Shown: positions 1 through 29,733 of the stretch, piece by piece
Layout: every line of letters starts with the position of its first letter
Position numbering within the stretch: position 1 is the stretch's first letter
Notes under the pieces: generated by a model
What the model was told of the DNA's origin: nothing
The model's database searches: none
What the model saw: the letters and a program-made list of their open reading frames with translations, nothing else
Source of the DNA: Candidatus Lokiarchaeum ossiferum
GTDB lineage: Archaea; Asgardarchaeota; Lokiarchaeia; Sigyniarchaeales; Promethearchaeaceae
DNA: 32,000 bases
NCBI GenBank assembly: GCA_025839675.1
Contig: CP104013.1
Span: 4,980,001-5,012,000, forward strand
Direction of reading: 5' to 3'
Program-made: the position numbers and the translations under genes

Positions 1-395
1 GGCTTTATATATTTTCAATTTTGCTCTGAGGTGAGTATTTACAACAATTGAATATTTTGTTATTAATTCAGTTAAAGAAATGAGCAGGAAATATCCTTTA
101 TATTGAAAATCAATTAAGAAAATGAAAAATAAGAGAGAAATAAATGATAAAAATATAATGGACAATTTAATAAACATAAAATTTGAATAATAAGATTCAA
201 AATTGGAATCTCCACTATGTTGAATATAAATGGATTCAATTCCAATTGATAAGAACATAGTGAATATTCCAATATAACTCGAAACTTCTCCAGTAACTCC
301 CATTAATTCTAATGACAAGTATTTTGCAAAAAAGTAGGCCGCAAAGATGTTTAGAAACTGAAGTCCTACCTGAAAAATCATTCTAATTATAAATT
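1..395 (-). CDS. Partial CDS (N-terminal 131 codons, runs off the window start): polytopic membrane protein resembling the N-terminus of Wzx/MOP-family polysaccharide flippases
   Basis: Not in the supplied ORF track. My own minus-strand translation from the ATG at 395..393 stays open to position 1: MKDKFIIRMIFQVGLQFLNIFAAYFFAKYLSLELMGVTGEVSSYIGIFTMFLSIGIESIYIQHSG... It has several helix-length hydrophobic segments and an A-K-x-L-x-x-E-x-x-G pattern like Polysacc_synt N-termini. It starts 18 nt downstream of the GT gene at 414..1487 on the same strand. Confidence 0.45.
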
Positions 396-413
396 TATCC
401 TTCATATTATCAT

Positions 414-1487
414 CTATTTTTGCAAAGTTTCTCTGAATATTTTCTTTAGTTGATTTCCTATTTTTTTTGGCGTACAATACTGAAGATATGTTTTATATCC
501 TTCATGAGCAATTTTGGTTCTCAATATTGAATTTGTATATAAAGTAAGAATTGAATTTGCAAGTGATTCTGGATCTTCCGCTTTACAGAGTATTGCATTA
601 TGTCCGTTTGTGAATAACTCCCGAATTGCTGGGTGATTGGATGATATAATTGCCTTTTCCAATGCTATTGCAGCATAAATCTTATTTGGAATTACAATCT
701 GAGACTTAATAGAATTACCAAAAATACCCAAAATGATATCCGCTCTATTCAATTCATTGATCAATTGAGTTTCTTGCATGAAAGGAATTATTTCTACATT
801 GTTTAAATTATTTTTTAACTTGAATTCAAGCATTTCTCTGAACAGAATCTTTTTTGGATTTCCGCCGATTATTTTAAAATGGATTTCAGTTTGATTTAAC
901 AAAATTTTTGCAGCTTGGAATATAATCGGTATTCCTTGTAATGGAATATAGCTACCAAAGAAAGTAACTTGAAAATGTTGAGTTTTTGATTTTGAAATGC
1001 TATTTTCTTTTTCATAATCAGAACCAACGAAAACTCTGTGAATTTTTGATTTTGGTACTTGAATTTCTTCTGAAAAATAATTTCCATGGATCTTGGTGTC
1101 CGATATTAGTACATCGGCCATATTAAACGATAGGTTTTCAACAAATCGCAAGATATTTCCACGTAGACTATGTTTCGGAAACATATGGTAGTCGTTTACT
1201 TTAGTATTATATTGTGATATCAGCGGGTCATAAACAATTTTCTTTCTCTTTACACATTTGAGCAAAAGTGCTATGGGCATTGCTAAAATACTTGCTGGAA
1301 ATCCAATAAATATGATGTTATATTCTTCATTTAATGCTTTTTTAAGAAGCAGCCATTTTCTTTTGAAACTCCTTACATTGAAAATGTTACAATGAATTAC
1401 TTCGATTGAGTTTGCTTGTAATCCTTTCAAAATTATTCTATTTCTTGAATAATTTTGATGATAGGAACCAAAAAATAGTGCTTTCAC
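414..1487 (-). CDS. GT-B fold glycosyltransferase (group-1-like)
   Basis: 357-aa ORF. The N-terminus MKALFFGSYHQNYSRNRIILKGLQANSIEV and the C-terminal block IPNKIYAAIALEKAIISSNHPAIRELFTNGHNAILCKAEDPESLANSI resemble the nucleotide-sugar binding half of GT-B enzymes. The GTG start overlaps the upstream TGA stop (GTGA at 1487..1484), which suggests translational coupling to the giant membrane protein gene. Confidence 0.7.
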   Translation of the reverse strand: MKALFFGSYHQNYSRNRIILKGLQANSIEVIHCNIFNVRSFKRKWLLLKKALNEEYNIIFIGFPASILAMPIALLLKCVKRKKIVYDPLISQYNTKVNDYHMFPKHSLRGNILRFVENLSFNMADVLISDTKIHGNYFSEEIQVPKSKIHRVFVGSDYEKENSISKSKTQHFQVTFFGSYIPLQGIPIIFQAAKILLNQTEIHFKIIGGNPKKILFREMLEFKLKNNLNNVEIIPFMQETQLINELNRADIILGIFGNSIKSQIVIPNKIYAAIALEKAIISSNHPAIRELFTNGHNAILCKAEDPESLANSILTLYTNSILRTKIAHEGYKTYLQYCTPKKIGNQLKKIFRETLQK

Positions 1488-4400
1488 TCCCTCACATCCA
1501 TATTATTTCGCTTATTCTCAATTTTCTGATACCAGAAATAAATTACTCCTAATATTATTGCAGACAATAAATAGAAAGGGAGGGCATGAATATCATCATA
1601 AAATGGATTTCGTTCATTAGTTTCATTTTCATTGAAAACGATTTCTTCCATTTCTCCTTGAATTACTTCAATATTTCGTATAATTATAAACGGATCCCCA
1701 AGATCGAGCGTTGTTTTTATATTTCCTAAGTATATACGGTTTCTTAATTCAGACGATGTCTCATAAAAACTGTTTCGCCAATTTATGAATTGCATTTTTT
1801 TTGCATTAATTTCAGGTTCTCTTATGTAACAATAAGATTGGTCTGAATTAATTTGTATACTTTCAATACTTGTAAACAAATGAGTTTTATTTTGATTCTC
1901 GAAAGAAATTACAGAATCCAATGCATTCTGGAAATTAATGCCAATTTGAGTAAAGAAACTTTCAATATAATAGCTAATTCCGGTAGACAAATTCATTTCT
2001 GTCCCCAAAATTGTAAAATTTGATGATCTTAAATCTAAATTCGACAAATTTGAAAAGGATTCTGAAGTTTTATTATTATATTGTATTATAATCTCATCAA
2101 AAATCATATCTTGCGGAAATAAAATGACATCCGTTTGTATTTCAGGATCATCAATTATAATTTGATCTGCCATTCCAATATACTGGTCATTCCAATCATT
2201 ATTTGTCATCTTCGTTAAATTAACCATTTGAAACAGTTCTTCATAAAAATTATATTCTTCATAAAATGATTCATTTAATTTATCAAAAGCTTGTAAAAAT
2301 GGAACTAAATTCAAATATGATATTGTTCCTAAGCCTAAATCTTTTTCAATCATATATGGAGATATTTCATTATTTCCTGCTTTAAAATTCCATATTTTTG
2401 TTAAATTTTCTAGTGTCAATAATTTTTTTTGTGGAACTGAGATTTCAGTTGGTAGATTTATCGAAATACTTTGATTATTTTCTATAATATTTGAGCTAAT
2501 GGTGGAATTTTCATTTGAGAATAAGAAATCGGAAAAATAACCGTCTTCTTGAGTATTTAATACTATTAGATCTCCTCCGTTGTTAACAAAATCCATGAAT
2601 CGTGACATTTCGCCAAAATTTGTAATATTTGGTTCGAGTTCTAAGGGATCAGTTGGAAGGATTATTGTTTTTTTATCATAAATTTGTGAATCAGAACTCA
2701 AATATGCTGAGTAGTTGATGAACGAAAGCGATAGGAAAAGATATCCAAGATATTGATCTGAAAAGTTTCCAACCTCATTCGAAGGTAAGATGAGCGCATT
2801 TTCACTTCTAATTAAAGGAAAAGATGGTTTGGTTGAATTAAAGATCTCAATTTCTGCATTTTGAAATAAAATTTGTTGAGAATTAATATAATCAAGAAGA
2901 AAACTGCTCGAGCGATTTGCCAATGATATGCTTTCATTTGAAGAAAGAAAGATGTAGGGATGTTCAACTTCTGTTGACTTAAATAAATAACGCAGATCCA
3001 TATCTGGTGTTGTGGCATTGTATAATTTATCATTATATTGATACATATTTGCATACCCTGCCGAATACACTGTTCTTTGTGATTTTCTCTCCAAAGTAAC
3101 TACCCAAGAATTAACATCCGTATTCCCGATTTTAATTAGATTATCCACAGCTTCCAATTCGTTATCAGTAAGCTGATATTCTGATTGAAAACGATCTAAA
3201 GTCTCGTTTTCAATGTTGAATACTGCCATTAATGAATTTGATGTTATGATCATTCCTAAAAATAAAGTTGAAATGAAAGTCTTCTTATTTATTTTCCAAC
3301 TACTTTTCAATTGAATATCTTTTAGGAAATCTATAATTGCATATGGTGCAATTAGACATAATCCAAGAAAAATGAATAGTAAAAACCGATTTTCATAATA
3401 CCCCGTAGAAAAGATAAAAACATTAATGAAAGATACGAATCGACCAAATAAAAATGCGTAAAGAACGAATATGAATATAATGATCATTTCTGCTTTCATT
3501 TTTCCTTCTTTGTACAAAAATAACATTCCTAATAACCCAAATAAACCCGTAAATCCCAGTTTAAATGAATATGTAAATAATGGTAGGATGGAATTTGAAT
3601 TAAGTAAGTAGGCGTTAAACCAATAAGCATACATTCCTGCCGTAATCATACCAACAACATAGAGTGTAGTTATGATTTTTAACATTTTGATAAATTTTTC
3701 ATCCCATCCCGGTAATTCTAGAGTATTTTGAATTTTATCTTCATATTTTCTTAACCATTTTCTTGAAACAAATTCAGTTATGACCAAAAATAAAATTAAA
3801 CCAAGTATTATTAAGAGTACCTTATTATCTATAAGATAGTCAAAGAAACTTGATGAAATGAGTGAATAGATCATATAAATTGGTGTAAGAAAACCGAGAG
3901 AGATTATTATTGTATGATTAATTTTTGTGGTTTTTAATTTTGGTATGATATTTAAAATACCTAAAAACCCACAAAATAGAATTCCTTCCGCGATATGAGT
4001 AAGAAAAATGCCAACAAACAATAGAGCAACTATCAAATGGTTACAAAATGCTTGAATTTTTGAGATTTGTTTATTCTGAGTCTCGTCTTTGATGGATTTC
4101 AATATTATGGAAAATAGAAACAAAAGCATGTTAAAGGCCATAATGGAAGGCACATTCCACAATCCATATAGAGAATTTATTGAGAAATAGGTAACCGCAT
4201 TTGTCACACCGTATAGAAAGGTTTGCGATATCGAAGGAATTAAAACTTTTAAAATTATTACAAAAAAAAACCCTATTCCTCCACTATTATTGCTGAAAAA
4301 TAACCATGTTGCAAACATTGGTATTCTATAATCCAATTTTGAGAATAAAACCGATGCAAATTGATAAAAAGATAAAATAAGGGTTAAATTTGAAAAAATG

Positions 4401-5224
4401 AGGATAGTGTTGATTTTTAAATAAGTGGAATTTGAAATGAAAATAAAAGCCGACTCATATAAATTTGCAAGGAGATAAGGCATCCGATATTCCGAAGGTT
4501 TTTTTCCCAAAATGACACTCCAACCGAAATGTCGAGAAATATCAGCTGAAACACTTCGGGCGATGTTTGGATATAAGACAATATAAATAGATATAAAAAA
4601 ACCAATAATCAGTAATAAACCGGTTAATTCTGCAACTTTCAATTCTATTTTTGAATTGGGATCATTTATGGACTCTGCTTTTTTTTGATTTGAAAATTCA
4701 ACATAAGTCGAAAATATACTACAAAGCAACAGAAGTAAAATAAAAATAATTGTTCTTAATGAAAAATCCATCCAAATTAACGATAGCCACATAAGACCAG
4801 ATAAGATATAACTAACAAAGAGTAATATCAAGAATGATTGAATTCTCGTAAATTTTGCATGCTTTTTAATTAGTTGAAGAATTAAATTTCCGGGAATAAC
4901 TGATATTGCAAGATAGGATAATATTCCAGATATGACGGTTGGATATACTTTAAAAATGTGAAATGAAAGAAGAATACTTGGGATGGATATTATAAGGAAA
5001 TACTTGATAAATTGAAGATATCTATTTGAAACCCTCTTAAAATGGTATGTTCGATTTAGAAAAGACGAGGGATCCAAATAAAAATGAAAGAATACAATAA
5101 AACAAGTTTGAAAAATTATATAAATATACTTTAGAGGAGATCCGACCAGCCAGACCATTATAAGTGAAAAGAAGCCACAAAGGATGAAAATGATTGAAAA
5201 TTTGTTCTTTGAAATCTTTGACAA
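1484..5224 (-). CDS. Giant polytopic membrane protein A (1246 aa): about 650 aa multi-TM N-terminal region, about 550 aa extracytoplasmic domain, C-terminal TM anchor. Candidate GT-C-like glycosyltransferase/oligosaccharyltransferase (function inferred, family not recognised)
   Basis: Long uninterrupted ORF. Many hydrophobic helices occupy the first half. The Asn-rich soluble second half has many N-x-S/T sequons. A terminal hydrophobic helix ALPFYLLSAIILGVIYFWY is followed by a basic tail. It is a clear paralog of 23301..26981, with shared blocks DI(S/Y)RH, ESAFIF(I/L)SN, RIP(M/I)(F/L)ATW, H(I/V)AE, LGF(T/Y)GLFGLL and NGGDLI. The predicted start is TTG at 5224, with AGAGGA 9 nt upstream. No WWDYG (AglB/STT3) motif is present. 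Confidence 0.6.
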   Translation of the reverse strand: MSKISKNKFSIIFILCGFFSLIMVWLVGSPLKYIYIIFQTCFIVFFHFYLDPSSFLNRTYHFKRVSNRYLQFIKYFLIISIPSILLSFHIFKVYPTVISGILSYLAISVIPGNLILQLIKKHAKFTRIQSFLILLFVSYILSGLMWLSLIWMDFSLRTIIFILLLLLCSIFSTYVEFSNQKKAESINDPNSKIELKVAELTGLLLIIGFFISIYIVLYPNIARSVSADISRHFGWSVILGKKPSEYRMPYLLANLYESAFIFISNSTYLKINTILIFSNLTLILSFYQFASVLFSKLDYRIPMFATWLFFSNNSGGIGFFFVIILKVLIPSISQTFLYGVTNAVTYFSINSLYGLWNVPSIMAFNMLLFLFSIILKSIKDETQNKQISKIQAFCNHLIVALLFVGIFLTHIAEGILFCGFLGILNIIPKLKTTKINHTIIISLGFLTPIYMIYSLISSSFFDYLIDNKVLLIILGLILFLVITEFVSRKWLRKYEDKIQNTLELPGWDEKFIKMLKIITTLYVVGMITAGMYAYWFNAYLLNSNSILPLFTYSFKLGFTGLFGLLGMLFLYKEGKMKAEMIIIFIFVLYAFLFGRFVSFINVFIFSTGYYENRFLLFIFLGLCLIAPYAIIDFLKDIQLKSSWKINKKTFISTLFLGMIITSNSLMAVFNIENETLDRFQSEYQLTDNELEAVDNLIKIGNTDVNSWVVTLERKSQRTVYSAGYANMYQYNDKLYNATTPDMDLRYLFKSTEVEHPYIFLSSNESISLANRSSSFLLDYINSQQILFQNAEIEIFNSTKPSFPLIRSENALILPSNEVGNFSDQYLGYLFLSLSFINYSAYLSSDSQIYDKKTIILPTDPLELEPNITNFGEMSRFMDFVNNGGDLIVLNTQEDGYFSDFLFSNENSTISSNIIENNQSISINLPTEISVPQKKLLTLENLTKIWNFKAGNNEISPYMIEKDLGLGTISYLNLVPFLQAFDKLNESFYEEYNFYEELFQMVNLTKMTNNDWNDQYIGMADQIIIDDPEIQTDVILFPQDMIFDEIIIQYNNKTSESFSNLSNLDLRSSNFTILGTEMNLSTGISYYIESFFTQIGINFQNALDSVISFENQNKTHLFTSIESIQINSDQSYCYIREPEINAKKMQFINWRNSFYETSSELRNRIYLGNIKTTLDLGDPFIIIRNIEVIQGEMEEIVFNENETNERNPFYDDIHALPFYLLSAIILGVIYFWYQKIENKRNNMDVRE

Positions 5225-5299: not shown

Positions 5300-6316
5300 C
5301 TAAAGTTTATAAAGATAAAAAAGCAACTTTGCATAAAAATTGAGGAATCTGAATGTTATTGATTTAGAATCCACTTCATTGAATATCCCTTCCATACTAT
5401 AGTAATTATCGAAGATATTATTTTGCTTTTCCTTTGATCGCCATATTTTCAACATATTTTTGACAAGATACTGAAAAATTTTTATTCTTTCTCTCAAAAA
5501 TCCTTTGCCAATTGCGAAAACCAAATGAAAAGGCTCAAATAACAACTGCACTAATAACATTTTCTTTCGATTTTGTGCATGTTCTAAACACATCATTAAT
5601 CGATTGCGTTCATGATAAAAGTATTTGAATTTACCTAATTTATATCCTTCATCATTTTTCAGATGGAGTAATCTTATTGAATTGTCCACATATTGCATGC
5701 AATCTATCATTGATGCTCGTATTGAAAAATCGATATCCTCGTGATACATGAAATATTCTTCATCAAATCCATGCAGTCTTTGAAATAATTGCTTTTCTAT
5801 CAAGAAGCAACATCCTGAGGTAATCATCGTTCTGCGGATTTTACTTGTTTTAGAGTAATCTGGATTTGAAAACCCTAAGAAATTGATTGTTCTTCTCGAA
5901 AACTCTAAAATCCCTGTAGGATTGCAAATTCTTGGACCAATAATTATTTTTTCCGTTCTTTTTTCTCTTTTTAATCGCAAATATGTATTAAACAACTTTT
6001 CGATGAAATTAGGGGATATTTCAACATCTGGATTTATAATTATTACATAATCACCATTTGCTTTTTCTACTGCTATATTATATCCAATGGAAAATCCTAA
6101 ATTCTCTTCAAATCCATAAATACGTATCTTTTCTGTATTGAGCTTATTCTCAGTTAAATAGGATTGAATGTTTAGTATCGGATCTTTTTTGCTCCACACC
6201 AAAACGATCTCATAATTATTATATAATTGTGTGGTTAAAGTTTGCATGCATTTAATGAAATTATTGTCTTGATAAAATCCTACTACTACAAAGGATATTA
6301 GTGGTTCATTTTTCAT
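5300..6316 (-). CDS. Family 2 glycosyltransferase A (COG1216 / WbbL-GlfT-like GT-A fold)
   Basis: 338 aa. It has ISFVVVGFYQDNN at the N-terminus, ENLGFSIGYN, IIINPDVE (DxD-equivalent) and HGFDEEYFMYHEDIDFSIR (ED motif), followed by ERNRL. It aligns along its full length with 28699..29733. Confidence 0.85.
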   Translation of the reverse strand: MKNEPLISFVVVGFYQDNNFIKCMQTLTTQLYNNYEIVLVWSKKDPILNIQSYLTENKLNTEKIRIYGFEENLGFSIGYNIAVEKANGDYVIIINPDVEISPNFIEKLFNTYLRLKREKRTEKIIIGPRICNPTGILEFSRRTINFLGFSNPDYSKTSKIRRTMITSGCCFLIEKQLFQRLHGFDEEYFMYHEDIDFSIRASMIDCMQYVDNSIRLLHLKNDEGYKLGKFKYFYHERNRLMMCLEHAQNRKKMLLVQLLFEPFHLVFAIGKGFLRERIKIFQYLVKNMLKIWRSKEKQNNIFDNYYSMEGIFNEVDSKSITFRFLNFYAKLLFYLYKL

Positions 6317-6587: not shown

Positions 6588-8375
6588 ATGAAAACTTTAA
6601 AAAAGAATCTTCCTATTGCAATAATTTCAATTATCTTCCTTTCCATGGCTATTTTCTGGATGGGAAAGAGCGATAATTTAGAAAATAATTCAATTAAAAT
6701 TAATCCTGCTGAGTTAAAAGATAAATCTCCCAATTTCATTCAAGAAATTCATTCTTCCATTTCAATTCAAGGAAATGATCAATTGGAAATTTTTATTGCA
6801 AATAACGGTTTAAATGGGGAGGGTTCAGCTTCATCACCATATATCATTGAAAATTATATAATTGATGCTACTTCATCTCACGGTATTTCTATACAGAATA
6901 TAACTAAGAATTTAATCATAAGAGAATGCGATATTCAAGATGGTTTTGACAACGGTAAATTTGGAATTTATTTAAGCAATTCAAGTAATATCTTAATTCA
7001 TGACAATCATTTTACCAGCAATTATTATGCCGTGATGCTATTCAAGTCTACTATCATCAATATTACAAACAATGTGATTTCACAAGCGGGAATTTATTTT
7101 AATGATTCTAATGAATGTTCTCTCTCTTATAATGAATTTAATCGCGCGAATTCTGCAACTGGGGGTGTTTGGTTACAAAATTCGGACAATAATTTAATTC
7201 AATTTAATGAAATTAAAGATTTAGAGTATCGTAAAGGCATATGTCTTTTTGATTCTCATTACAATATACTTAATGCAAATAAAATAAGCAATATCTATAT
7301 GGAACACGCGATTGATATCAGAAGATCTCATTCTAATATCATAACTTCAAATCAAATTAATAAATCTGTATGGATTAGTGCTATATATTTGCATGAATCA
7401 CAAAAAGCACATATAGAGAATAATTATATCTACGAAAATGGTGGAATGGGAATTTTACTCTATTATTCTGATTTCTTCAATATAACAGGAAACATCATAC
7501 GGTTCAATCTTGATTCTGGGATTTGTGTTGATCATACAATGGAAAGTTCCCTAACATTTAACTTAGTTACTGATAACGATGGTTTTGGGATTCATTTACT
7601 CTCCTTTATAAATCTTTTTCTTGAAGGTAATGAAGGAATCATCGGGTACGGTGATGATATACCTCCTGAAACAGATCCCATAATTACAAGTGATTCATCC
7701 ACTATTACACCTCCATCTACTTCTACTTCTTCATCTAACACTTCGTCTTCATCTATTTCTCAATCTATTGAAGAAAGTCGTCCCTCATGGGTTGAACTAT
7801 TTCTAATATTCACTACATTTTTTGTGATTTTCATTTTAATTTCACTTGTTTCATCCAAAAAAGACCAAAGCAACGAAAATCTGAATAATCAAGAAGTGGA
7901 AGAATTAGAATATTCCCTAGATAAAACAGTGGAGAATAATAATATGGAAAATTGGGAAATAGAGTCTATTTTTAATGATAATGTCTCTGATTCGCCTATA
8001 ATAGAAGAGCTAGAACCGAGAAATAGGATCGAAACCAAATTATTATCACCGGAACTTGATATCAAAGCAAATATTCAACCTCAAATTTCCTCTGATCATG
8101 AAATCCATATCTCGACTCAAAAGCATCTATTGGGGAATTTTAAAGATATTTTAAATGAAAAAAGAAAAATAGAAATTCCAATCCTAGCGTCTTTATTAAA
8201 TATTAGTGAAAAAGAATTATTGCTAAATCTTGTTTCATGGAGTCGAATCATCCCCTTTAAAATAGAAAATGGCATTATTGAAATGGAAATTCTCTCCAAT
8301 TTCATTGGGCTACTTGATAAACAATTTCAGGATTGGACTAAAAAAGGACCTAATGATAAGAAAATGGAAAAGTGA
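6588..8375 (+). CDS. Membrane-anchored right-handed parallel beta-helix (PbH1/NosD-like) surface protein A with Ser/Thr-rich stalk, TM helix and about 170 aa cytoplasmic tail
   Basis: 595 aa. The N-terminal signal anchor is LPIAIISIIFLSMAIFW. Repeats of the type N-x-I-x-x-N-x-I...GI-x-L fit PbH1 beta-helix turns. The stalk is TSDSSTITPPSTSTSSSNTSSSSISQS and the TM helix is WVELFLIFTTFFVIFILISLVSS, followed by a long charged tail. It is a paralog of 27244..28494. Confidence 0.8.
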   Translation: MKTLKKNLPIAIISIIFLSMAIFWMGKSDNLENNSIKINPAELKDKSPNFIQEIHSSISIQGNDQLEIFIANNGLNGEGSASSPYIIENYIIDATSSHGISIQNITKNLIIRECDIQDGFDNGKFGIYLSNSSNILIHDNHFTSNYYAVMLFKSTIINITNNVISQAGIYFNDSNECSLSYNEFNRANSATGGVWLQNSDNNLIQFNEIKDLEYRKGICLFDSHYNILNANKISNIYMEHAIDIRRSHSNIITSNQINKSVWISAIYLHESQKAHIENNYIYENGGMGILLYYSDFFNITGNIIRFNLDSGICVDHTMESSLTFNLVTDNDGFGIHLLSFINLFLEGNEGIIGYGDDIPPETDPIITSDSSTITPPSTSTSSSNTSSSSISQSIEESRPSWVELFLIFTTFFVIFILISLVSSKKDQSNENLNNQEVEELEYSLDKTVENNNMENWEIESIFNDNVSDSPIIEELEPRNRIETKLLSPELDIKANIQPQISSDHEIHISTQKHLLGNFKDILNEKRKIEIPILASLLNISEKELLLNLVSWSRIIPFKIENGIIEMEILSNFIGLLDKQFQDWTKKGPNDKKMEK

Positions 8376-8973: not shown

Positions 8974-9909
8974 ATGAAAATGAAAAAAAGAAATAATATT
9001 GATAAAAATCCTTATGAAAACCCCATTCTAATTAACTTATTTGCGAAATATGATACTTTATGGGAACTATGCCCAAAAAAAGTAATGAGATTCCTTGAAA
9101 AAAAAATAAAACCATATGTAAAAAGAAATATTCAATATTTAGGTGAATTTGGTTATGAGTTGATTGCAGTTATTCCTTTTGCTTACTGGTTACATTTAAA
9201 TGGAAAACTTCTTTCGACAAGAAGTGCAAAGGATACAAAATGTTTGTACTATTTCTCAAAGTATCATGTAGAAATAAATAAAAAGAGGAAGTTTATCAAA
9301 GTTTCAAATTTTCCTCTGAAAGATATCCATATTCCTTCAATAAATACAAGTAAATGGTGTCCTCCCCCATATAAAAAAATTTATAGAAATTCTAAATTCC
9401 TTTGGGGAAAACCAATTTGTGTAATTTGCAATAAATTTACGGAAGAATGGGGCGGGAAACCTATCAATTTTTTATCTATTGAAATTTTGAAAGAAATATT
9501 TGATTTATTGAAATCAAAATATCAAATTATATACAATCGCCCTTTAAGCAAAAATATTGTTGCAGATGATCAAAAAGAAATAAGTTTTCCCGATATGCAA
9601 TTAATAGAAGAAAAATATCCAGATATTCAAACTATACAAGATTTGGCAATTAATAATGAAGATTTATCATTCAACGTTCTTCAAATGATGCTTTATGCAA
9701 ATTGCGATCATTTTATTTCCGTTCAAGGCGGAAGCTCTGTATTTTCAAGCTTTTTTGGAGGTAAAAACATCATTTTTGCAAAAGAAGGAGGAGAATTGAG
9801 GCATAATTCATTTAAGTGGTACAATAAATTTTCAGGATCAACCATTTTCCATTTGAACGATTATTCAAAACTAATTGAAACACTAAAACGAGAGTATTTA
9901 AATGAATGA
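8974..9909 (+). CDS. Uncharacterised protein, possible GT-B-like glycosyltransferase, translationally coupled to glf
   Basis: 311-aa ORF. Its last 8 nt overlap the glf start (9902..9909). GEFGYELIAVIPFAYWL and HFISVQGGSSVFSSFFGGKNIIFAKEGG loosely resemble GT9/GT61-type motifs. No confident family assignment is possible by eye. Confidence 0.5.
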   Translation: MKMKKRNNIDKNPYENPILINLFAKYDTLWELCPKKVMRFLEKKIKPYVKRNIQYLGEFGYELIAVIPFAYWLHLNGKLLSTRSAKDTKCLYYFSKYHVEINKKRKFIKVSNFPLKDIHIPSINTSKWCPPPYKKIYRNSKFLWGKPICVICNKFTEEWGGKPINFLSIEILKEIFDLLKSKYQIIYNRPLSKNIVADDQKEISFPDMQLIEEKYPDIQTIQDLAINNEDLSFNVLQMMLYANCDHFISVQGGSSVFSSFFGGKNIIFAKEGGELRHNSFKWYNKFSGSTIFHLNDYSKLIETLKREYLNE

Positions 9910-11020
9910 TATATTGATTGTAGGTGCAGGTTTCACAGGTTCAGTTTTAGCAGAAAGAATTAGTTCAAAACTGAATAAAAAATTACTTCTAATTGATAGA
10001 AGAGATCATGTTGGAGGAAATAGTTTTGATTATTATAATGATAATGGTGTTTTAATTCATAAATATGGTCCCCATTACTTTAGGACTAATTCTGATAAGG
10101 TTTTTCAATATCTTTCCCAATTTACTAAATGGAGACATGTAGAATATAGGGTACGGACTTCAGTTGATGGAAATCTATATCCAATTCCAATAAATCGGGA
10201 TACAATTAATCAATTTTTTAAGATTCATTTGAAAAACGAGCAACAAACTAAAGAATACCTAAATAGTATTAGAGTAGAAATTGAAAAACCAAAAAATTCC
10301 GAAGAAATTGTTATTTCAAAAGTTGGAAAAGAAATTTATGAAAAATTTTTCAAAAATTATACATTCAAACAATGGAATTTATATCCAAAGGATTTAGATC
10401 CAGAAGTGTGTGCAAGAATTCCGATTAGAATAAATACAGATGATAGGTATTTTACTGATGAAATTCAAGCTATGCCTGTTGATGGCTATCATTCTCTCTT
10501 TAATCGAATGTTGAAAAATCCTAAAATAACTGTTAAATTGAATACAGATTTTAAAGAAATCAAAAATTTAGATGATTTTAAACTTATAATATTTACTGGC
10601 TGCATTGATGAATTCTTTAATTTCAAATTTGGCCGATTACCATATCGTTCCTTAAGATTTGAAATAGAAAATCATCAGCAAGAATTTTATCAAAATTGGA
10701 GTCAAATTAATTATCCTAATGATTTCGATTATACCCGAATTGTCGAGATAAAGCATGTGACTGGTCAAAAAATTCCTAATACTACAATTGTGAAAGAATA
10801 TCCAGAAGCCGAAGGTGATCCTTTTTATCCAATTCCTCGTAAGCAAAATCATGAAATATATAAAAAATATGAGGATGAAGCCAAATCTCTTAAAAAAATA
10901 ATTTTTGTAGGAAGATTAGCCCAATACAAATATCTAAATATGGATCAAGTTGTTGCAAATAGTTTAGAATTATTCGAAAAAATTCTTTTGAAAAAAGAAA
11001 TCTTGGGTAAGGGAAGTTAA
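9902..11020 (+). CDS. glf: UDP-galactopyranose mutase
   Basis: 372 aa. It has the N-terminal FAD fold ILIVGAGFTGSVLAERI, then LLIDRRDHVGGNSFD, HKYGPHYFRTN and the C-terminal FVGRLAQYKYLNMDQVV. All are characteristic of Glf. Confidence 0.92.
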   Translation: MNDILIVGAGFTGSVLAERISSKLNKKLLLIDRRDHVGGNSFDYYNDNGVLIHKYGPHYFRTNSDKVFQYLSQFTKWRHVEYRVRTSVDGNLYPIPINRDTINQFFKIHLKNEQQTKEYLNSIRVEIEKPKNSEEIVISKVGKEIYEKFFKNYTFKQWNLYPKDLDPEVCARIPIRINTDDRYFTDEIQAMPVDGYHSLFNRMLKNPKITVKLNTDFKEIKNLDDFKLIIFTGCIDEFFNFKFGRLPYRSLRFEIENHQQEFYQNWSQINYPNDFDYTRIVEIKHVTGQKIPNTTIVKEYPEAEGDPFYPIPRKQNHEIYKKYEDEAKSLKKIIFVGRLAQYKYLNMDQVVANSLELFEKILLKKEILGKGS

Positions 11021-11021
11021 T

Positions 11022-11996
11022 TTAAGAATGGTTTTGCCAGTCAAAAACATCTTGAATGATATTTAACATATTCTTTTTAGCTTTCCAGTCAAGCAATTTT
11101 TCTGCTTTGTCGGGATTAGCAACAAGAATTGCAGGATCTCCAAGTCTTTCTTTGCAAAAATTTATTCTAATATTCTTCTTTGAAACCTCTTCAATAATTC
11201 TTATGATTTCTAAAATACTATTTCCTTTACCAGTTCCCAAATTGAAATAATTTGACTTTTTTGTTTTTTTAAGATATTCAAGCGCTTTCAAGTGCCCTTC
11301 TGCGAGATCTAAAACATGAATATAATCACGTATGCACGTTCCATCTTTAGTAGAATAAGAATTACCAAATACATTGATTTCCTTAGTTTTTTCGAATACT
11401 ACATCAAAAATTAGCGGGATTAAATGGGTTTCTGGATCATGTAATTCTCCGATTCCATATGCTGCTCCTGCTGCATTAAAATATCTCATTGAAATTGATT
11501 TGATTCCATAAATTTGATCATACCAGTGAAGATATCTCTCAAATATTAACTTACTTTCTCCATATGGATTAATGGGTTTTTTTACAGATTCTTCATCTAT
11601 TGGTAGATATTCAGGTTGTCCATAAATCGCGCATGATGATGAAAAAACAATTTTGTTGCATGAATGTTTTCTCATTGATTCCAGCAAATTTAATCCACCA
11701 TTTACATTATTATTGAAGTATAAACTTGGGTTTTTCATGCTTTCTCCAACATAAGCATAAGCCGCAAAATGTAAAACAGATTCAATTTCATTCTTAATGA
11801 AAACTTCTTCTATTGCATCTACATTGAGAAGATCTCCCTTAATAATTTGAATTCCTTCTGGGAGTGATTCTCGATGACCATATTTTAAATTATCAAAAAC
11901 AATTAACTGATCAAGTGAGTAACCATTTTTAAGAAAGTAATGAATTGTATGGCTACCGATATATCCCGCACCGCCTGTAAAAAGTATTTTCTTCAT
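11022..11996 (-). CDS. galE: UDP-glucose 4-epimerase (SDR family)
   Basis: 324 aa. It has KILFTGGAGYIGSHT (Rossmann GxxGxxG), SSSCAIYG, the YGESK catalytic YxxxK, and the RYFNAAGA and DGTCIRDYIHVLDLA blocks typical of GalE. Confidence 0.9.
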   Translation of the reverse strand: MKKILFTGGAGYIGSHTIHYFLKNGYSLDQLIVFDNLKYGHRESLPEGIQIIKGDLLNVDAIEEVFIKNEIESVLHFAAYAYVGESMKNPSLYFNNNVNGGLNLLESMRKHSCNKIVFSSSCAIYGQPEYLPIDEESVKKPINPYGESKLIFERYLHWYDQIYGIKSISMRYFNAAGAAYGIGELHDPETHLIPLIFDVVFEKTKEINVFGNSYSTKDGTCIRDYIHVLDLAEGHLKALEYLKKTKKSNYFNLGTGKGNSILEIIRIIEEVSKKNIRINFCKERLGDPAILVANPDKAEKLLDWKAKKNMLNIIQDVFDWQNHS

Positions 11997-12168
11997 TTTA
12001 CAATCCTTTTTTTTTTTAAAAATAATGAATTATTAAATATTTGAGAAATTAAGAAGTTGATTAATTTTTGCAGTTTCTTCAGTTCAAAAGTAATAAATAC
12101 TCGAATATTTCTCTTTTCTGTGATTGTCAGTTAAATCAAAGTTCTATTTTGTACTGATTATCTTTATA

Positions 12169-13395: not shown

Positions 13396-13565
13396 AAAGT
13401 AATTATTTGTTGCCTAAATTTTAATTTTATGGTATATAGGAAGCTTTACAGCATAATCCTCATTAATTTTAGATGTAAAGATGTATAAATGAATTATTTT
13501 CAGTTTTACTTGTTCAAAAAAACTCGAATAGTAATATCAATTTGAAGTAAAAGTCTTCCTTTTCT

Positions 13566-14636: not shown

Positions 14637-14730
14637 AATAAATTGAATTATAGAATAAATAATAAATTTTTGAAATCAATTGACATTTGTTTCAAAAAAA
14701 TATTATTATTTGAATATTTCAGATTACTTG

Positions 14731-15963: not shown

Positions 15964-15966
15964 ATG

Positions 15967-16728
15967 TTATTTCATAGTGTCTAAATAATGCTTAATTCCA
16001 AGAGAAGGATCTTCTTCAAACATTGTTAAATGTCCGTGATCCATGACTCCAACTTTAGTTGCTAATTTTTTGACCATATTCATGTCATGGGTCACCAATA
16101 TTATTGCAGAACGTTCCTTATATCTATTAATTGCTTGATAACATTTTGCGCGAAATTTTTCATCACCTACTGCTAAAACCTCGTCTATTAGTAAAATATC
16201 TGGTTCCATTTGGTATGATATGGCAAAACCTAATCGAATATACATCCCGGAAGAGTAATGTTTAACTGGTGTGTCGATGAAATCCCCAATGTCCGCAAAT
16301 TCAATGATTTCATTATATTTTGCATCAATTGTTTTTTTCGACATTCCAAGTATTGCTCCGTTCACATAAATATTTTCACTTCCTGTTAAATCTGGGTGGA
16401 ATCCTGCGCCTACTCCGATCAAAGCACCCATTTCACCTCTGTATTTAATGGTTCCTTTATCGGGGGTGTAGATTCCATTCAATATTTGAAGAAGTGTTGT
16501 TTTCCCTGATCCATTATGACCAATAAGTGCCAATGTTTCTCCCTTTTTAAGTTGGAAAGATACATTGCTTACAGACCAAAATTCATCTTTTCTCAATTTC
16601 TCAGAATGTGTTTTTAATCCAAAGATTTTCCTCAATACATCTTTCATTGTATAAACCATCGATTTGGAAAGTGTTTTACAAAATTTCTTTGAAACATTAT
16701 TTACTTGAAATACAACATTTTCATCCAT
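15967..16728 (-). CDS. wzt: Polysaccharide/teichoic-acid type ABC exporter ATP-binding protein (Wzt/TagH/KpsT-like), short form without C-terminal carbohydrate-binding domain
   Basis: 253 aa. It has Walker A GHNGSGKTTLLQIL, the signature variant YSSGMYIRLGFA typical of Wzt/TagH, Walker B ILLIDEVLAVGD and an H-loop VTHD. The ATG directly abuts the permease stop codon. Confidence 0.9.
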   Translation of the reverse strand: MDENVVFQVNNVSKKFCKTLSKSMVYTMKDVLRKIFGLKTHSEKLRKDEFWSVSNVSFQLKKGETLALIGHNGSGKTTLLQILNGIYTPDKGTIKYRGEMGALIGVGAGFHPDLTGSENIYVNGAILGMSKKTIDAKYNEIIEFADIGDFIDTPVKHYSSGMYIRLGFAISYQMEPDILLIDEVLAVGDEKFRAKCYQAINRYKERSAIILVTHDMNMVKKLATKVGVMDHGHLTMFEEDPSLGIKHYLDTMK

Positions 16729-23300: not shown

Positions 23301-26300
23301 TTAGTATGTGAGATATGGAATATCCAGATTAACTACCCTCAAAATATCTTCATAATACGGAATTCCTGTTTCTTGGTAAATTTTTAATTGAATTGCTTTA
23401 AAAATGGGATATATATTTATGTAGTAGAGATTCCCCATACCGATTGGTTGAGTAATAATGAACGGAACTTCTTCATCGTATGAATTTGAATAAGAAGCTA
23501 AGATTGAAGCATTTGCTGGTGTAACACTTAATAGAATCAATTCGATTTCATACAAAAGATCAATAGATTCAGTTTCACCTATCAGCTTATTAGATGCACT
23601 CGTACTAAATGACATTTCTATCATTTCTTTAGCGAATGCATTATATCCATTTGAGTTAAAAATGATTAAGTCTCCTCCATTCTCGATATAATCATAATAA
23701 TCTTCGATGTTTCTACTGGATTTAACTGCATAAAATGCTTCAAAATCTCGAAGATCAAAATTGACAATAAAACTAGTGGAATAGGTCGTGTATTGGATTC
23801 CAAAAACATTCGAATTTGAAGTATTATTGTTTGTTGCATGAAAATTATTTAGCGAAAAATCTATTCCTTGTTCATTTATTGATATATCTACAATTAGATG
23901 ATCCCTTAATTTCCAATTTATGCTTGTATTAACGCCCGGCCATGTTTGAGGTAATATTTGATCTCCAACAATGAAATAATAATGAATAAAACCCGAAGGT
24001 GAAAATAAGTACACTATTTTGTTGAAACTCATGTCATCATTCTGGGAAAAAACAAACTCTAGGTAATTATTTACATTTTTATCCATATCTGCTATTGAAA
24101 TTTGAAACCTGGCAGTTAAATTGGAAATGGGATAAGGACACATTAAAGTTCCACTTGAAACATATGGATCTTTAGAATAAGAGTTAATATTGAACTCAGT
24201 TGCTGTTTGAAAATCAAAATTTCCTCCACAACTTTCCCATTCATAAAAGGATGGGGTAATATTCAAAGAATCATCATTTAGGGGGTCGAAAGCTAAAAAT
24301 AATTTATCATAATCAAACAAAGATCCATCTAAATCATTGATTGTCGAGAAATTTCTATATGCTTGGCTGAATAGATTCATATTTTGGACTTTTTGGGAAA
24401 AAGGAAGATAATTATCCTGAGGAAAAACTATTTTCAAATCACTATTCGATTGAGGTGGTGAAATTTTCGGAATGCGGTAAATGGTGTAATCTTCTTCACT
24501 ATAAACTTTATGGAAAATATTTAACATCTCTTTGAAATAATCATGGTATCGCTCGTTGATTTTAGAAACATTTCCTTGGGTTAAATATAAATAGGAATTT
24601 TCAAATCCTTCATTTTTCATGGTATATTGCTGTAAAAATATGCTCTCTGTGAGTGTATTGTAAGAAAGTTTTTCTCCAAGAACTAAATTTAACACTATGC
24701 GTGAATTTGATTCAGATTTATTAATCATTTGATAAGTGAATTCATCCAGTGTAATAATATAAGCTGAATTATCTTCTTCAAGAAGAGTTCTAATTGCATT
24801 TATTCCCATTTTGTCCTCATCCCATAAAACCGGTAAGTATTGTTTGGCATTTTCCCCATTTCGATAACTATATTCTAACCCAAATAACACTGTTGAATAA
24901 TTGGATATCAAGAGAAAGAATAGAACGAGATATTTGTATAACGATCTGAAATGTATTTCGTTTAATTGTAGATTTTTTAATTTGTGTTTGTCAAAATGTA
25001 TCAAACCATAATAAATCCCTGTAGCAATAAATGGAATGATTATAAACACTCCCAATCTTCTCTCAAAATAGTAGATTGGTCCGGTTAATATATGTAATCG
25101 AACATAAGTTAGCACAATTCCAAAACCCATACAGAAGATACCAAAAATCAGTAAGAAATTATATTTAAAATCAATATTTTTATTTTTAACACTAAAATAC
25201 AGATATAGTAATCCAAATAATCCATAAAATCCCAGTCTAACCGGATGGAAAAACCAAAGAACTTGTCCTGATTCTAAGAAATTCTCTATGCTTAGTGATT
25301 CAGAATCCCAAACAAAAGTCCAGTACACTAACCCGCTGATAAGTAATAGCAAAGCAAATAAAATTAAGATTTTGACTACCTTATGCCATCTTTCATGGGG
25401 AAAATATCGATTATCTGCTGGTGATTTTTCAATTCTGATTAAATAATTTGTTAATCTTGTGTTAGTGATCTTTTCCTTATTCCTTACAATAAATTTCCAT
25501 CCAAGATGAATAATCATAGTTAGAATTAGAAAAGCCAAGGTAACATATAGTAAATAGAAGTAAAGAGGAAAAATCCACTCTTCTATTGCTTTTGACAAAT
25601 AATTATATAATTTATAAAATATTATGATGCTTATATAGGAAAGAATCATAGAAAACAATGTTTCGGTTGATTTGATCCCTTTCCCTTTAAAGAAAAATAA
25701 GAATACTCCCAAAAATATTCCAAAAATGGTAGCTTCAGCCACATGGGATAGGAACATTCCAACTTGCATAATTGTCAATAATGGAATAAATAATTTCCCG
25801 GGAATTGAATCAATCTGAATTAATGTCATAATTCCAAACAAAATAATAAATGATGGAATAATGGGTGTGTAGTAAGATGGAGAAAATCCATAATATAATG
25901 AGTTTAATGTTTGGGAATTTGCGAGATTCAAAGCATTAGAAAAAGGAAGCTGATTGATTAACCTAAGTTTAATGAAATATATCCATCCAAGTCCTCCCGT
26001 TGCACCAAGCATGTAAGCCCAAGTCGCAAGAATTGGAATTCTTTTATCAATTTTATTAAAGAAACGTTTCATCGCAGTATAGAAGACAATGGGTAAGATA
26101 TAATTTATTAATAACAAAGTAGTCTGATTCACTACTATTGAACCGTTAGATAAAAAGATAAATGCTGATTCATGTGAATGGGCCACTGTATAGAACCAAG
26201 AATAATATTGAAGAAAATAATCATTTATTGATTCTCCAAATAGCACACTATATGAATAATGGCGATATATGTCAGGAGAAATTGAATAGACAATTTGCGG

Positions 26301-26981
26301 GTAGAGAAGTAAACTTGAAAAAATATACATCATATAAATTATCGCAAAACCCATCCAATCATTTTTAGAGGCAAAAGATTCAATTTTTGGATAAGAAATT
26401 TCTTTGTTCGTGAATAGAATGGTTCCTCCAACTAAAATCAATAATAAAACCAAGAAAATAGTATTTCTGTTCGCTATTTTTGATATAACTAATATAAACC
26501 ATAGAATGGCTGTAAAAATATAACTTGTGATAAATGAAAACGCTATCATTTCTATTCTGGAAAATTTTGTTCTTATTTTTGTAATTGCAAGAATACAATA
26601 TCCGGGTAGAAAAGAAGTGTTAAGTAATGCAATAATGGAAGAAAGAAATCCCAGATTTATTGTTAATATTGATAAAATTACTTGAATTGTTGGCAAAGAA
26701 CACAAGAATACATTTTTGAGTATTTTTGAATTAAATTTTCCAACAATCTTCTTAAATTGGAGCAGTGATATTGGAATATTCACATCATTCAAAATAATGT
26801 ACAGGAATAGTAAAGTAATAAAAGTGATAAATAGAAAGGGGATCTTGATCCATGTGGGGATAAGCCATAAGAAATAGGCCGAAAGAAGTGTAAAAGGGAC
26901 GCAGAATACAAGAATTGCTTTAAATTTTTTTGATTTAAAAAAATTCCTTATATTTTCTTCATTTTTTTTTTTAATTTCCAT
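23301..26981 (-). CDS. Giant polytopic membrane protein B (1226 aa), paralog of 1484..5224. Candidate GT-C-like transferase (function inferred)
   Basis: Long uninterrupted ORF starting at an ATG. It has a multi-TM N-terminal half sharing conserved blocks with protein A, and a large soluble C-terminal half with NGGDLIIFN and GMGNLYYINIYPIF (A has NGGDLIVLN and GLGTISYLNLVPF). It has no C-terminal TM helix and no WWDYG motif. Confidence 0.6.
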   Translation of the reverse strand: MEIKKKNEENIRNFFKSKKFKAILVFCVPFTLLSAYFLWLIPTWIKIPFLFITFITLLFLYIILNDVNIPISLLQFKKIVGKFNSKILKNVFLCSLPTIQVILSILTINLGFLSSIIALLNTSFLPGYCILAITKIRTKFSRIEMIAFSFITSYIFTAILWFILVISKIANRNTIFLVLLLILVGGTILFTNKEISYPKIESFASKNDWMGFAIIYMMYIFSSLLLYPQIVYSISPDIYRHYSYSVLFGESINDYFLQYYSWFYTVAHSHESAFIFLSNGSIVVNQTTLLLINYILPIVFYTAMKRFFNKIDKRIPILATWAYMLGATGGLGWIYFIKLRLINQLPFSNALNLANSQTLNSLYYGFSPSYYTPIIPSFIILFGIMTLIQIDSIPGKLFIPLLTIMQVGMFLSHVAEATIFGIFLGVFLFFFKGKGIKSTETLFSMILSYISIIIFYKLYNYLSKAIEEWIFPLYFYLLYVTLAFLILTMIIHLGWKFIVRNKEKITNTRLTNYLIRIEKSPADNRYFPHERWHKVVKILILFALLLLISGLVYWTFVWDSESLSIENFLESGQVLWFFHPVRLGFYGLFGLLYLYFSVKNKNIDFKYNFLLIFGIFCMGFGIVLTYVRLHILTGPIYYFERRLGVFIIIPFIATGIYYGLIHFDKHKLKNLQLNEIHFRSLYKYLVLFFLLISNYSTVLFGLEYSYRNGENAKQYLPVLWDEDKMGINAIRTLLEEDNSAYIITLDEFTYQMINKSESNSRIVLNLVLGEKLSYNTLTESIFLQQYTMKNEGFENSYLYLTQGNVSKINERYHDYFKEMLNIFHKVYSEEDYTIYRIPKISPPQSNSDLKIVFPQDNYLPFSQKVQNMNLFSQAYRNFSTINDLDGSLFDYDKLFLAFDPLNDDSLNITPSFYEWESCGGNFDFQTATEFNINSYSKDPYVSSGTLMCPYPISNLTARFQISIADMDKNVNNYLEFVFSQNDDMSFNKIVYLFSPSGFIHYYFIVGDQILPQTWPGVNTSINWKLRDHLIVDISINEQGIDFSLNNFHATNNNTSNSNVFGIQYTTYSTSFIVNFDLRDFEAFYAVKSSRNIEDYYDYIENGGDLIIFNSNGYNAFAKEMIEMSFSTSASNKLIGETESIDLLYEIELILLSVTPANASILASYSNSYDEEVPFIITQPIGMGNLYYINIYPIFKAIQLKIYQETGIPYYEDILRVVNLDIPYLTY

Positions 26982-28698: not shown

Positions 28699-29733
28699 AT
28701 GTCTCAAAATGGCTCAAAAAATATTGATATTTCTGTAATTATTGTTGCTTTTGGTTTTCCAGATGCAAAATTAAAAAAAACCCTCGCCAATATTACAAAT
28801 CAATCTTATTCAAGTTATGAAATTGTGCTGATATGGGCAAAATTTCCAAAAACCCTTGATATTAATCAATATTTTAAATCCAACTCCATTAATTCTTCGA
28901 AAATTCAATTTCATCATTTTGAAGAAAATCTTGGATATGCTAAAGGAAATAACCTCGGGTCAAAATTTGCCAAAGGAGACAAAATTGTTATCATGAATCC
29001 CGATGTTGAAACGCTTCCAGCATTCCTCACAGAAATGGTACATACTTTTGCATACCTTCAAAAACTAAATCGAACGGATAAAATTGTTTTAAATCCCCGT
29101 ATCTGTAATAGGTTCGGGAATATTGAATTTGCTAAAATATACTTGAACTTTTTAGGTTTCTCCAATAATAATTTTCCAATGTCTGATAAAATCCAAAGGA
29201 CGATGATCTCTTCTGGATGCACATTTTTAATTTCCAAACGTTGTTTTCACCACTTTCATGGATTTGATGAATCTTATTTTATGTATCATGAAGATACGGA
29301 TTTATCCTACCGTTTACAAAAAGCGGGATTTAAACTTTATGTGGATAATAATATCCCCGTTTGGCATCTAAAAACTGATTATGAATATAAAATGACCGAC
29401 TTTAAATTCTTTTATTGGGAACGAAATCGCTTAAAATTCACGCTTGAAAACGCCTCTAACTTGAAACGGTTACTTCTCTGTCAACTGTTATTGGAACCCT
29501 TGATGTTCGTGTATGCACTTAAAGCTGGACTGATAAAACAAAAATTTATGATTTACAAATACTTCATTCGTAATTTTCTTTTACTTAATCACAAGAATCA
29601 TAAAGGAGTTCTGAATTCCTATGAAAATTACTCTTCTATGGAAGGAATTATCAATGAAGTCCCTCCAAAATCCATTGTGTATCGATCAATTAAATTCTAT
29701 GTGAAATTGCTATTTTATTTATATCATTCATAA
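28699..29733 (+). CDS. Family 2 glycosyltransferase B (COG1216 / WbbL-GlfT-like), paralog of 5300..6316
   Basis: 344 aa. Blocks shared with GT2 A: YEIVL(V/I)W, FEENLG, NPDVE, PRICN, NFLGFSN, RTMI(T/S)SGC, HGFDE(E/S)YFMYHED, SMEGI(F/I)NEV and the terminal KLLFYLY. Confidence 0.85.
   Translation: MSQNGSKNIDISVIIVAFGFPDAKLKKTLANITNQSYSSYEIVLIWAKFPKTLDINQYFKSNSINSSKIQFHHFEENLGYAKGNNLGSKFAKGDKIVIMNPDVETLPAFLTEMVHTFAYLQKLNRTDKIVLNPRICNRFGNIEFAKIYLNFLGFSNNNFPMSDKIQRTMISSGCTFLISKRCFHHFHGFDESYFMYHEDTDLSYRLQKAGFKLYVDNNIPVWHLKTDYEYKMTDFKFFYWERNRLKFTLENASNLKRLLLCQLLLEPLMFVYALKAGLIKQKFMIYKYFIRNFLLLNHKNHKGVLNSYENYSSMEGIINEVPPKSIVYRSIKFYVKLLFYLYHS

Follow-up and report, generated by a model that had tools for sequence, protein, structure and literature searches.

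The window analysed here is a stretch of 32,000 nucleotides from Candidatus Lokiarchaeum ossiferum (contig CP104013.1 of assembly GCA_025839675.1, positions 4,980,001 to 5,012,000 of the forward strand) with a G+C content of 28–30%. Its minus strand encodes, in this order, a GT2 glycosyltransferase (5300..6316), a large polytopic membrane protein that is the subject of this study and is called the target below (1484..5224), a GT4 glycosyltransferase (414..1487) and an open reading frame (ORF) cut by the window edge (1..405). Both glycosyltransferases (GTs) were recognized with Pfam and the upstream GT2 belongs to the same operon as the target, while the cut ORF corresponds to the N-terminus of a Wzx/MOP-type flippase, of which the fragment alone gives a weak MatE match. 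The target ORF specifies 1246 amino acids between a TTG start and a TGA stop; this stop and the GTG start of the GT4 gene share four nucleotides (GTGA), an overlap already read from the sequence in an earlier note on this locus. In this study, we propose with a probability of roughly 0.6 that the target is a distinct GT-C enzyme of the STT3 superfamily, which would move a flipped lipid-linked glycan onto an acceptor that is not an N-X-S/T sequon.

Public gene calls place the start of the target too late. The product is 100% identical to an L. ossiferum protein at NCBI named 'hypothetical protein' (P0001), but the NCBI call has 1197 amino acids and is thus 49 codons shorter, and the call from the Logan assembly has 1102 amino acids. 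The 49 N-terminal residues absent from the NCBI call (5077-5224, minus strand) form two transmembrane (TM) helices. The long TTG-started form is preferred because these first two TM helices align with and are conserved in homologues, are modelled by AlphaFold2 (AF2) with a predicted local distance difference test score (pLDDT) of ~90, and are preceded by a Shine-Dalgarno-like GAGGA located 9 nucleotides upstream of the TTG at position 5224.

The architecture was derived from two overlapping AF2 models covering residues 1-865 (pLDDT 78.9, predicted TM-score 0.84) and 660-1246 (pLDDT 82.0, predicted TM-score 0.81). Up to residue 678 the models show 19 TM helices, followed by an ectodomain of 528 amino acids (679-1206) and a C-terminal helix (1207-1245), in agreement with the long multi-helix N-terminal half and large soluble domain described in the earlier note. 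All parts given here are encoded on the minus strand. An N-terminal six-TM module (residues 1-183; 4676..5224) with modelled helices at 6-26, 31-50, 67-91, 96-120, 127-148 and 154-183 carries an (F/L)PG(Y/N) motif and a glycine, G112, that is 92% conserved. It is followed by a 13-TM GT-C core resembling STT3 (residues 196-678; 3191..4639), delineated by Foldseek and hhalign, and by a membrane-proximal alpha/beta domain (residues 679-805; 2810..3190) that takes the position of the core domain of oligosaccharyltransferases (OSTs) without their WWDYG motif. Next comes an alpha/beta domain of the GIFT or class-I glutamine-amidotransferase type (residues 806-1005; 2210..2809; AF2 pLDDT 82, Foldseek), inside which the NGGDLIVLN block is located (2555-2581). 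An all-beta sandwich domain (residues 1006-1200; 1625..2209), assigned by DSSP on the second model (strands at 358-537 in model numbering), leads to a C-terminal TM anchor (residues 1207-1232) with a basic cytoplasmic tail (1233-1246; together 1487..1606) that is apparent from the AF2 helix and from hydropathy. Such a second anchor with a basic tail had been anticipated, and a hydrophobic C-terminal anchor is present in 130 of the 148 full-length family members.

Two of these parts vary or recur elsewhere. Relatives of the target carry LamG, CBM_11 or PF06439 inserts between the proximal and the GIFT-like domain (the Pfam match to Laminin_G_3 reaches 5e-25), and a paralog in the same window has a comparable insert. 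The N-terminal module touches DUF1616 (PF07760), which is matched below threshold by 6 of 35 homologues (20-24 bits against a cutoff of 31.6, best E=2.5e-5) and not by the target itself; the matches cover profile positions 13-131 and map to the PGY-bearing TM helices. DUF1616 proteins are archaeal membrane proteins of unknown function and, unlike the target, are devoid of a GT-C core.

When the N-terminus is placed inside, lysine and arginine account for 28 of 115 loop residues on the inner side and for 6 of 123 on the outer side. The same bias holds family-wide (fractions of 0.235 inside and 0.038 outside, with 163 of 163 sequences in agreement). These positive-inside counts predict an extracytoplasmic position for the loop with the DIxRH motif and for the ectodomain, as well as for the residue pairs H410/E413 and E611/R613 discussed below. 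The ectodomain is acidic (74 D/E versus 32 K/R) and contains 18 N-X-S/T sequons where its composition predicts 9. The target thus has the general GT-C layout, being polytopic with its N-terminus inside, an acidic residue in the first external loop of the core and a soluble domain outside.

The earlier note had presented the protein as an orphan, which does not hold. Word-indexed searches found 18 relatives. An exhaustive HMMER search with a profile of target residues 1-865 against 1.84 billion cluster representatives returned 1083 representatives at E<=1e-3 and 562 at E<=1e-30, most of them 1200-1500 amino acids long and matching the profile end to end. Wherever the source gives a name, it is 'hypothetical protein'. 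Neither the target nor the paralog matches a family in Pfam or NCBIfam at E<=1, one noise match aside; the target and 35 homologues yield no Pfam match to PMT_2, DUF2206, YfhO or AftD, and a sequence search of the PDB using family profiles gave nothing meaningful. A description of the family was not found in the literature, nor does it have a name in Pfam, NCBIfam or the source annotations seen. It is large (>1000 clusters), wholly unannotated and archaeal-rich, with a taxonomic range sketched here from the few named cluster members: L. ossiferum, a Thorarchaeota metagenome-assembled genome (MAG), a Nitrososphaeraceae MAG and one MAG labelled Clostridiales. When genome contigs were scanned with a degenerate DNA pattern for VPW..YP..LG..G, the 35 matches were all bacterial and look like chance (rough chance estimate ~70).

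The structural kinship of the target points to the catalytic subunits of OSTs. In a Foldseek search of the TM model against the PDB, the top seven matches are all of this kind with a probability of 1.0: yeast STT3 8agc_A (E=2.5e-4), 7oci_F, AglB 3waj, 8age_A, PglB 5ogl, human STT3A 6s7o and PglB 6gxc. Other GT-C enzymes rank behind them (AftA at 9, Pmt4 at 30, ALG9 at 38). The general GT-C reading of the earlier note is therefore backed by fold search and profile comparison alike, but its choice of Emb/AftD, PMT and YfhO as the nearest resemblance is not, as STT3/AglB/PglB are closer. With AftA/AftD/Emb, PMT and ALG9, other GT-C enzymes with large ectodomains, the target has in common the GT-C fold, a putative catalytic Asp in the first external loop and, in some relatives, carbohydrate-binding modules in the ectodomain; it differs from them in that its best fold matches are OSTs.

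For the profile comparison, a reference set of 53 complete OST ORFs was collected by a metagenome scan for WWDYGY; ten of the ten tested are Pfam STT3 proteins (1e-18 to 1e-43). Aligned with hhalign, 163 family sequences match this set locally with 96.3% probability (E=1.7e-9) and globally with 98.8% (E=5.5e-16), the latter pairing family positions 173-804 with OST positions 1-767. Reversing either alignment brings the probability down to 0.2-3% (four runs, E=0.015-0.28). The TM core alone against the OST TM region reaches 96.9% in global mode (E=2.6e-10; reversed control 0.0%), while the N-terminal module shows no relation to that region (local hhalign, 0.3%, E=0.2). The proximal domain alone against the C-terminal part of the OSTs gives only 9% (local, E=0.0036) over 23 columns, which correspond to the helix-strand unit before WWDYG. 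In the full-length alignment, family 'E.eal..L....dp.s.vlT' is paired with OST 'w..al.Wlr.nt....vv.sWWDYG' and family 'evtIY.vp' with OST 'VkIykv'. Like the OST core domain, the alpha/beta domain after the last core TM helix thus begins with helix-strand and ends with '..IY.vp'. The target and the OSTs further have in common a 13-TM GT-C core with the N-terminus in and the C-terminus out, as well as an occurrence in glycan gene clusters.

Another STT3-like relative was encountered at homologue locus L001, where a DUF6541 (PF20176) protein is encoded at 20333-22429, 6 kb from homologue P0005, and reads QEDSG in place of WWDYG. Like the target family, DUF6541 is uncharacterized and lies in glycan clusters. 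Unlike the target, it has ~700 amino acids, has neither N-terminal module nor GIFT domain nor anchor, and lies far nearer to canonical OSTs (97.7% against the OST set in hhalign) than to the target family (56.8%, global).

Conservation over the 163 aligned sequences, which are ~20% identical to the target, singles out a small number of polar residues. The DISRH loop (residues 228-232; 4529..4543, minus strand) follows directly on the first TM helix of the core and contains D228, conserved in 162/163 sequences, and H232 (80%). In the hhalign alignment, D228 falls in the column of the Asp of the OST external loop 1 (EL1) 'efDPYffyR', itself conserved in 52 of 53 OSTs; the earlier suggestion that the Asp of this loop sits at the catalytic position of GT-C enzymes is in line with this alignment, and D228 is a putative catalytic base. 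R613 falls in the column of the OST 'smvRL' Arg (52/53), the invariant Arg near EL6 which we take to be R375 of PglB and R404 of STT3. In PglB and STT3 the invariant Arg binds the pyrophosphate of the donor. R613 (157/163, 96%) belongs to an ENR motif at the outer end of core TM12 (residues 611-613; 3386..3394, minus strand) together with E611 (155/163, 95%); neither residue was listed in the earlier note. A further polar pair is specific for the family and lies in HIAE, in the turn between core TM5 and TM6 (residues 410-413; 3986..3997, minus strand), with H410 in 156/163 (96%) and E413 in 142/163 (87%); HIAE faces the 'WGG' region of the OSTs. Y287 is 94% conserved and P548 and G557 are near-invariant. 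The other motifs that had been picked out by eye fared unevenly: the residues of DIxRH, FLTHIAE and RIPxxATW (P302 77%, T306 83%) are indeed conserved in the 163 homologues, whereas ESAFIF is conserved among close relatives only. Judged from this alignment, there is strong purifying selection on four polar positions beyond the Asp and Arg.

Motifs of the OSTs are missing in the family as consistently as these residues are kept. Opposite WWDYGYwI the hhalign alignment has a gap of ten columns, where the family reads (V/L)(L/I)T.(T/S)..S, so the absence of WWDYG noted before is borne out. WWDYG reads the +2 Ser/Thr of the sequon. For the EL2 DxD/DxE motif ('GffD.E') no conserved acidic column was found at 340-360 (best D in 61/163 at 351; D in 38 and E in 22 at 346). 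The Glu of TIXE/SVSE (OST 'tVaE', 53/53) has no counterpart, with a family EL5 of ~17 residues and E543 in 30/163. As to the DK/MI motif, D764 (91%) faces the D of OST 'DegK', yet no conserved Lys follows at +3, in a region where alignment confidence is low. Since five defining features fail and the family has H..E and E.R motifs of its own, we regard it from its alignment as a relative of GT66 rather than a member. Unlike STT3/AglB/PglB, the target has a short EL5 and adds the six-TM N-terminal module, the GIFT-like domain, the beta-sandwich and the C-terminal anchor. It is an architecturally distinct variant, founding or belonging to an unnamed family in the STT3-like GT-C branch.

The probable activity of the target is the transfer of a lipid-carried glycan to an acceptor at the cell surface other than the usual protein target. 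Because WWDYG, the DK motif and the long EL5 clamp are absent and relatives bear lectin-type inserts in the ectodomain, the acceptor is probably not the Asn of a sequon; likelier candidates are glycans, glycoconjugates and protein sites outside sequons. The ectodomain, as a doubly tethered combination of GIFT-like domain and beta-sandwich with LamG or CBM inserts in relatives, suggests a role in presenting a glycan or glycoconjugate acceptor or in handling the donor glycan. In the mechanism we propose, the active site of the 13-TM core would lie on the outer face of the cytoplasmic membrane. The donor would be built in the cytoplasm by the GT2 and GT4 of the operon and carried across the membrane by the adjacent Wzx-type flippase; from these three genes we infer that it is linked to polyprenyl phosphate. 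R613 with E611 and H410/E413 may hold the phosphate or pyrophosphate of a dolichol-phosphate- or dolichol-pyrophosphate-linked glycan, possibly via a divalent cation, and would in this way make up for the DxD and TIXE ligands that the family lacks. As the catalytic base, D228 in the first external loop would activate the acceptor nucleophile, resulting in an inverting transfer of the glycan en bloc to a cell-surface acceptor.

Several observations weigh against this proposal. Foldseek gives modest E-values, from 2.5e-4 to 1e-2, and its TM-scores on the target lie at 0.35-0.46; neither the target, the paralog nor the 35 homologues match Pfam STT3 (PF02516) or STT3-PglB_core at E<=1. The hhalign relationship appears profile against profile only, without signal when the family profile is compared with single OST or PMT_2 sequences. 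AftA, Pmt4 and ALG9 were compared by fold search, and the profile-profile comparison of the GT-C core covered the OST set and DUF6541. Because catalytic or recognition motifs of the OSTs (DxD/E, TIXE, WWDYG) are missing in the family, its chemistry may differ from that of OSTs more than assumed. Finally, a Wzx gene stands beside the homologue only in the L. ossiferum locus; none was found within 10 kb at the other loci, where some neighbours are without a Pfam match.

The loss of these motifs bears on two further explanations as well. An ordinary AglB paralog that still glycosylates N-X-S/T sites would account for the homology to STT3/AglB/PglB and for a location in glycan clusters, which is also that of aglB in many Euryarchaeota. 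The gapped WWDYG, the lack of the DK Lys, the TIXE Glu, DxD/E and a Pfam STT3 match, and the EL5 of ~17 residues are difficult to reconcile with such an enzyme, and this explanation was rejected on the missing motifs as very improbable. A catalytically dead scaffold or receptor that retains the GT-C fold would explain why several canonical OST motifs are lost. Yet D228, H410, E611 and R613, which lie on the predicted active-site face, show 95-99% conservation although mean identity within the family is ~20%, and the gene is closely integrated into an operon that encodes biosynthetic enzymes; given the conserved polar residues, a dead protein was likewise rejected and is the most improbable of the explanations considered. 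What is known of the Asgard archaeon P. syntrophicum counts for the AglB paralog: there the canonical aglB, which has WWDYG, reportedly does not cluster with genes for GTs, in contrast to the target family, whose gene is embedded in glycan-assembly operons (PMC11284389).

The distinct STT3-superfamily transferase proposed here would be of interest beyond this locus. The family appears to keep the catalytic Asp and the Arg of OSTs while it drops everything that reads the N-X-S/T sequon and gains a doubly anchored GIFT-type ectodomain. N-glycosylation has its signature enzymes in the OSTs, and how these evolved in Asgard archaea matters for the question of how the eukaryotic OST complex arose. 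If active, the family would extend the STT3 fold to another kind of acceptor (glycan, lipid or non-sequon protein site), would be a candidate for building the Asgard cell surface, which is poorly understood, and a possible new tool for glyco-engineering, and it would give a concrete test for the origin of OST48-like modules. In outline, the reading of the earlier note is supported as essentially correct: no confident profile match to a well-characterized non-GT family emerged, and neither the DIxRH loop nor the ectodomain is predicted to be cytoplasmic.

The genomic context agrees with a function in glycan assembly and also gives room to two other activities. In locus L161 of the same organism, which was found via the GT4 gene, the flippase is complete (11083-12582, 499 amino acids, Polysacc_synt_3) and is followed by a GT2 gene, a CapK-like adenylating enzyme and two GT4 genes. 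Sugar-pathway genes occur at 8/8 other homologue loci. Five of these (L001-L003, L160, L164) are dense clusters of GT4, GT2, epimerase and methyltransferase genes with a GT gene often abutting the homologue. The other three (L159, L162, L163), which belong to a more distant subgroup, are looser, with GSDH-type dehydrogenases, polysaccharide deacetylase, GT4 or PMT_2-type GT-C; at L163 the sugar-pathway genes are a PMT_2-type GT-C and an epimerase only.

An operon that has a Wzx flippase and no Wzy-like polytopic gene, and that encodes no large polytopic protein besides this flippase and the target, would fit a role of the target as glycan polymerase. As a Wzy analogue it would use the Wzx-flipped repeat unit as both donor and acceptor, with the ectodomain as a built-in chain-length or co-polymerase element. 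The TM-ectodomain-TM layout indeed resembles PCP/Wzz proteins and the lectin-like inserts of relatives point to glycan binding. The absence of a flippase from most other homologue loci argues against polymerization, and known Wzy proteins have a different fold. To our knowledge, no STT3-like enzyme polymerizes. Sequence does not separate polymerization from single transfer, and we consider a Wzy-like activity unlikely, albeit the foremost of the alternatives.

Next in rank, and likewise improbable, is the addition of single sugars from a dolichol-phosphate-monosaccharide to an exported glycan or protein, in the style of GtrA/B/V, CsbB/YfhO, AglD/AglS or PMT, with the GT2 making the dolichol-phosphate-sugar. 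Such GT-C enzymes are widespread, and the EL1 Asp is all that they require. The GT2 is the only neighbour that is duplicated along with the target, the GT2 of the paralog module (28699..29733) being 47% identical to the target-side GT2 by BLASTP, and a GT2-GtrA fusion is encoded near the gene at one distant locus. Conversely, the best NCBIfam matches of the target-side GT2 are weak, none of them over cutoff, and chain-extending (rhamnosyltransferase, HpsN, AglG) instead of GtrB, DPM1 or ArnC type, and the nearest folds of the target itself are en-bloc transferases rather than PMT or ArnT.

The C-terminal half of the target raises a separate question of descent. GldG, IFT52 and OST48 share a domain named GIFT. 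The earlier note had compared NGGDLIVLN with GldG/DUF4350-type domains, and this idea fits because the GIFT-like domain gives weak Pfam matches to Glyco_hydro_42M (0.012-0.068) and DUF4350 (0.018). The domain has the alpha/beta fold with a GG.L(I/V) strand that is typical for GIFT, and its fold matches are of the GIFT or glutamine-amidotransferase kind. With Foldseek, the C-terminal model matches the yeast OST chain 6c26_B, verified to be Wbp1, with a probability of 1.0 over 497 aligned columns, almost the full length of the chain (E=9.4e-6). The target and Wbp1/OST48 have a GIFT domain, a beta-sandwich and one C-terminal TM helix in the same order, with a 'GG.(L/V)(I/L)' strand at the matching place. 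A difference is that Wbp1/OST48 is a non-catalytic subunit of the eukaryotic OST, whereas in the target the module and the catalytic subunit form one chain. A better match than Wbp1 comes from GH42 beta-galactosidases, whose non-catalytic domains reach E ~7e-8, and GH164, a beta-1,2-glucosyltransferase and STM3548 (2gk3) are matched as well. In sequence, hhalign of the C-terminal half against a two-sequence profile of Wbp1 and OST48 stays at 0.1%, the same as the reversed control, and none of 35 family members has a Pfam DDOST match. We give little credence, less than to polymerization or single-sugar transfer, to the idea that the target is a single-chain version of the eukaryotic STT3-OST48 pair with its parts in Wbp1/OST48 order. 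If that idea were true, archaea would possess a so far unknown system that glycosylates proteins or glycans without a sequon, and common descent as the cause of the resemblance would make the C-terminal half of an archaeal enzyme from the target family the source of OST48. The OST subunits listed in two papers on Asgard archaea are STT3, Ost1 and Ost3/6, and OST48 is not among them (PMC11417166, PMC11284389).

The paralog that had been pointed out in the window (23301..26981, minus strand) encodes 1226 amino acids and is 25% identical to the target over 938 amino acids (BLASTP, E=4e-50), with the NGGDLI block also common to both. It contains a lectin-like insert and is without the beta-sandwich and the anchor, as the protein ends directly after the GIFT-like domain (VVNLDIPYLTY, then the stop codon). 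Three broken ORFs of DDE transposases are located ~60 nucleotides downstream (21909-23300). Since these ORFs adjoin the gene and a tblastn search for the missing C-terminus revealed no remnant, the paralog was probably truncated by the insertion of an insertion sequence (IS) element or by a deletion; clear inverted repeats of an IS element were not found either.

Each of the two polytopic genes is adjoined by a gene for a surface protein of the NosD/parallel-beta-helix type (6588-8375, plus strand; 27244-28494, minus strand). Both proteins carry a stalk rich in Ser/Thr as well as a C-terminal TM anchor, and over 203 amino acids their identity is 30%. They are possible acceptors or glycan-processing enzymes. 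As conserved acceptors they were downgraded, because none of the eight other homologue loci carries one (0/8).

Side observations at the related loci concern the distant subgroup and the far end of the glycan island. Homologues P0013, P0016 and P0017 (loci L162, L163 and L159) measure 1687-1871 amino acids and are repeatedly flanked by genes for beta-propellers of the glucose/sorbosone dehydrogenase (GSDH) type, with a polysaccharide deacetylase at L159 and L162 and a PMT_2-type GT-C gene at L162 and L163. The far end of the glycan island in L161 (18673-19728) holds a gene for a small GTPase of the Arf/Ras/Roc type, a typical eukaryotic-signature protein of Asgard archaea.

Between the two modules the window encodes a second glycan pathway. 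It is preceded by an ORF of 311 amino acids (8974-9909, plus strand) without a match in Pfam or NCBIfam, which is possibly an unrecognized glycosyltransferase and of which the stop overlaps the start of glf. The pathway itself (9902-20396) comprises UDP-galactopyranose mutase (Glf), a GalE-type epimerase, a GT90-like gene, a Wzm/Wzt ABC-2 exporter (15967-17583) and another GT4; three GT4-like paralogs at 12169, 14680 and 17798 are mutually 56-61% identical. This gene content suggests an ABC-transporter-dependent polymer that contains galactofuranose.

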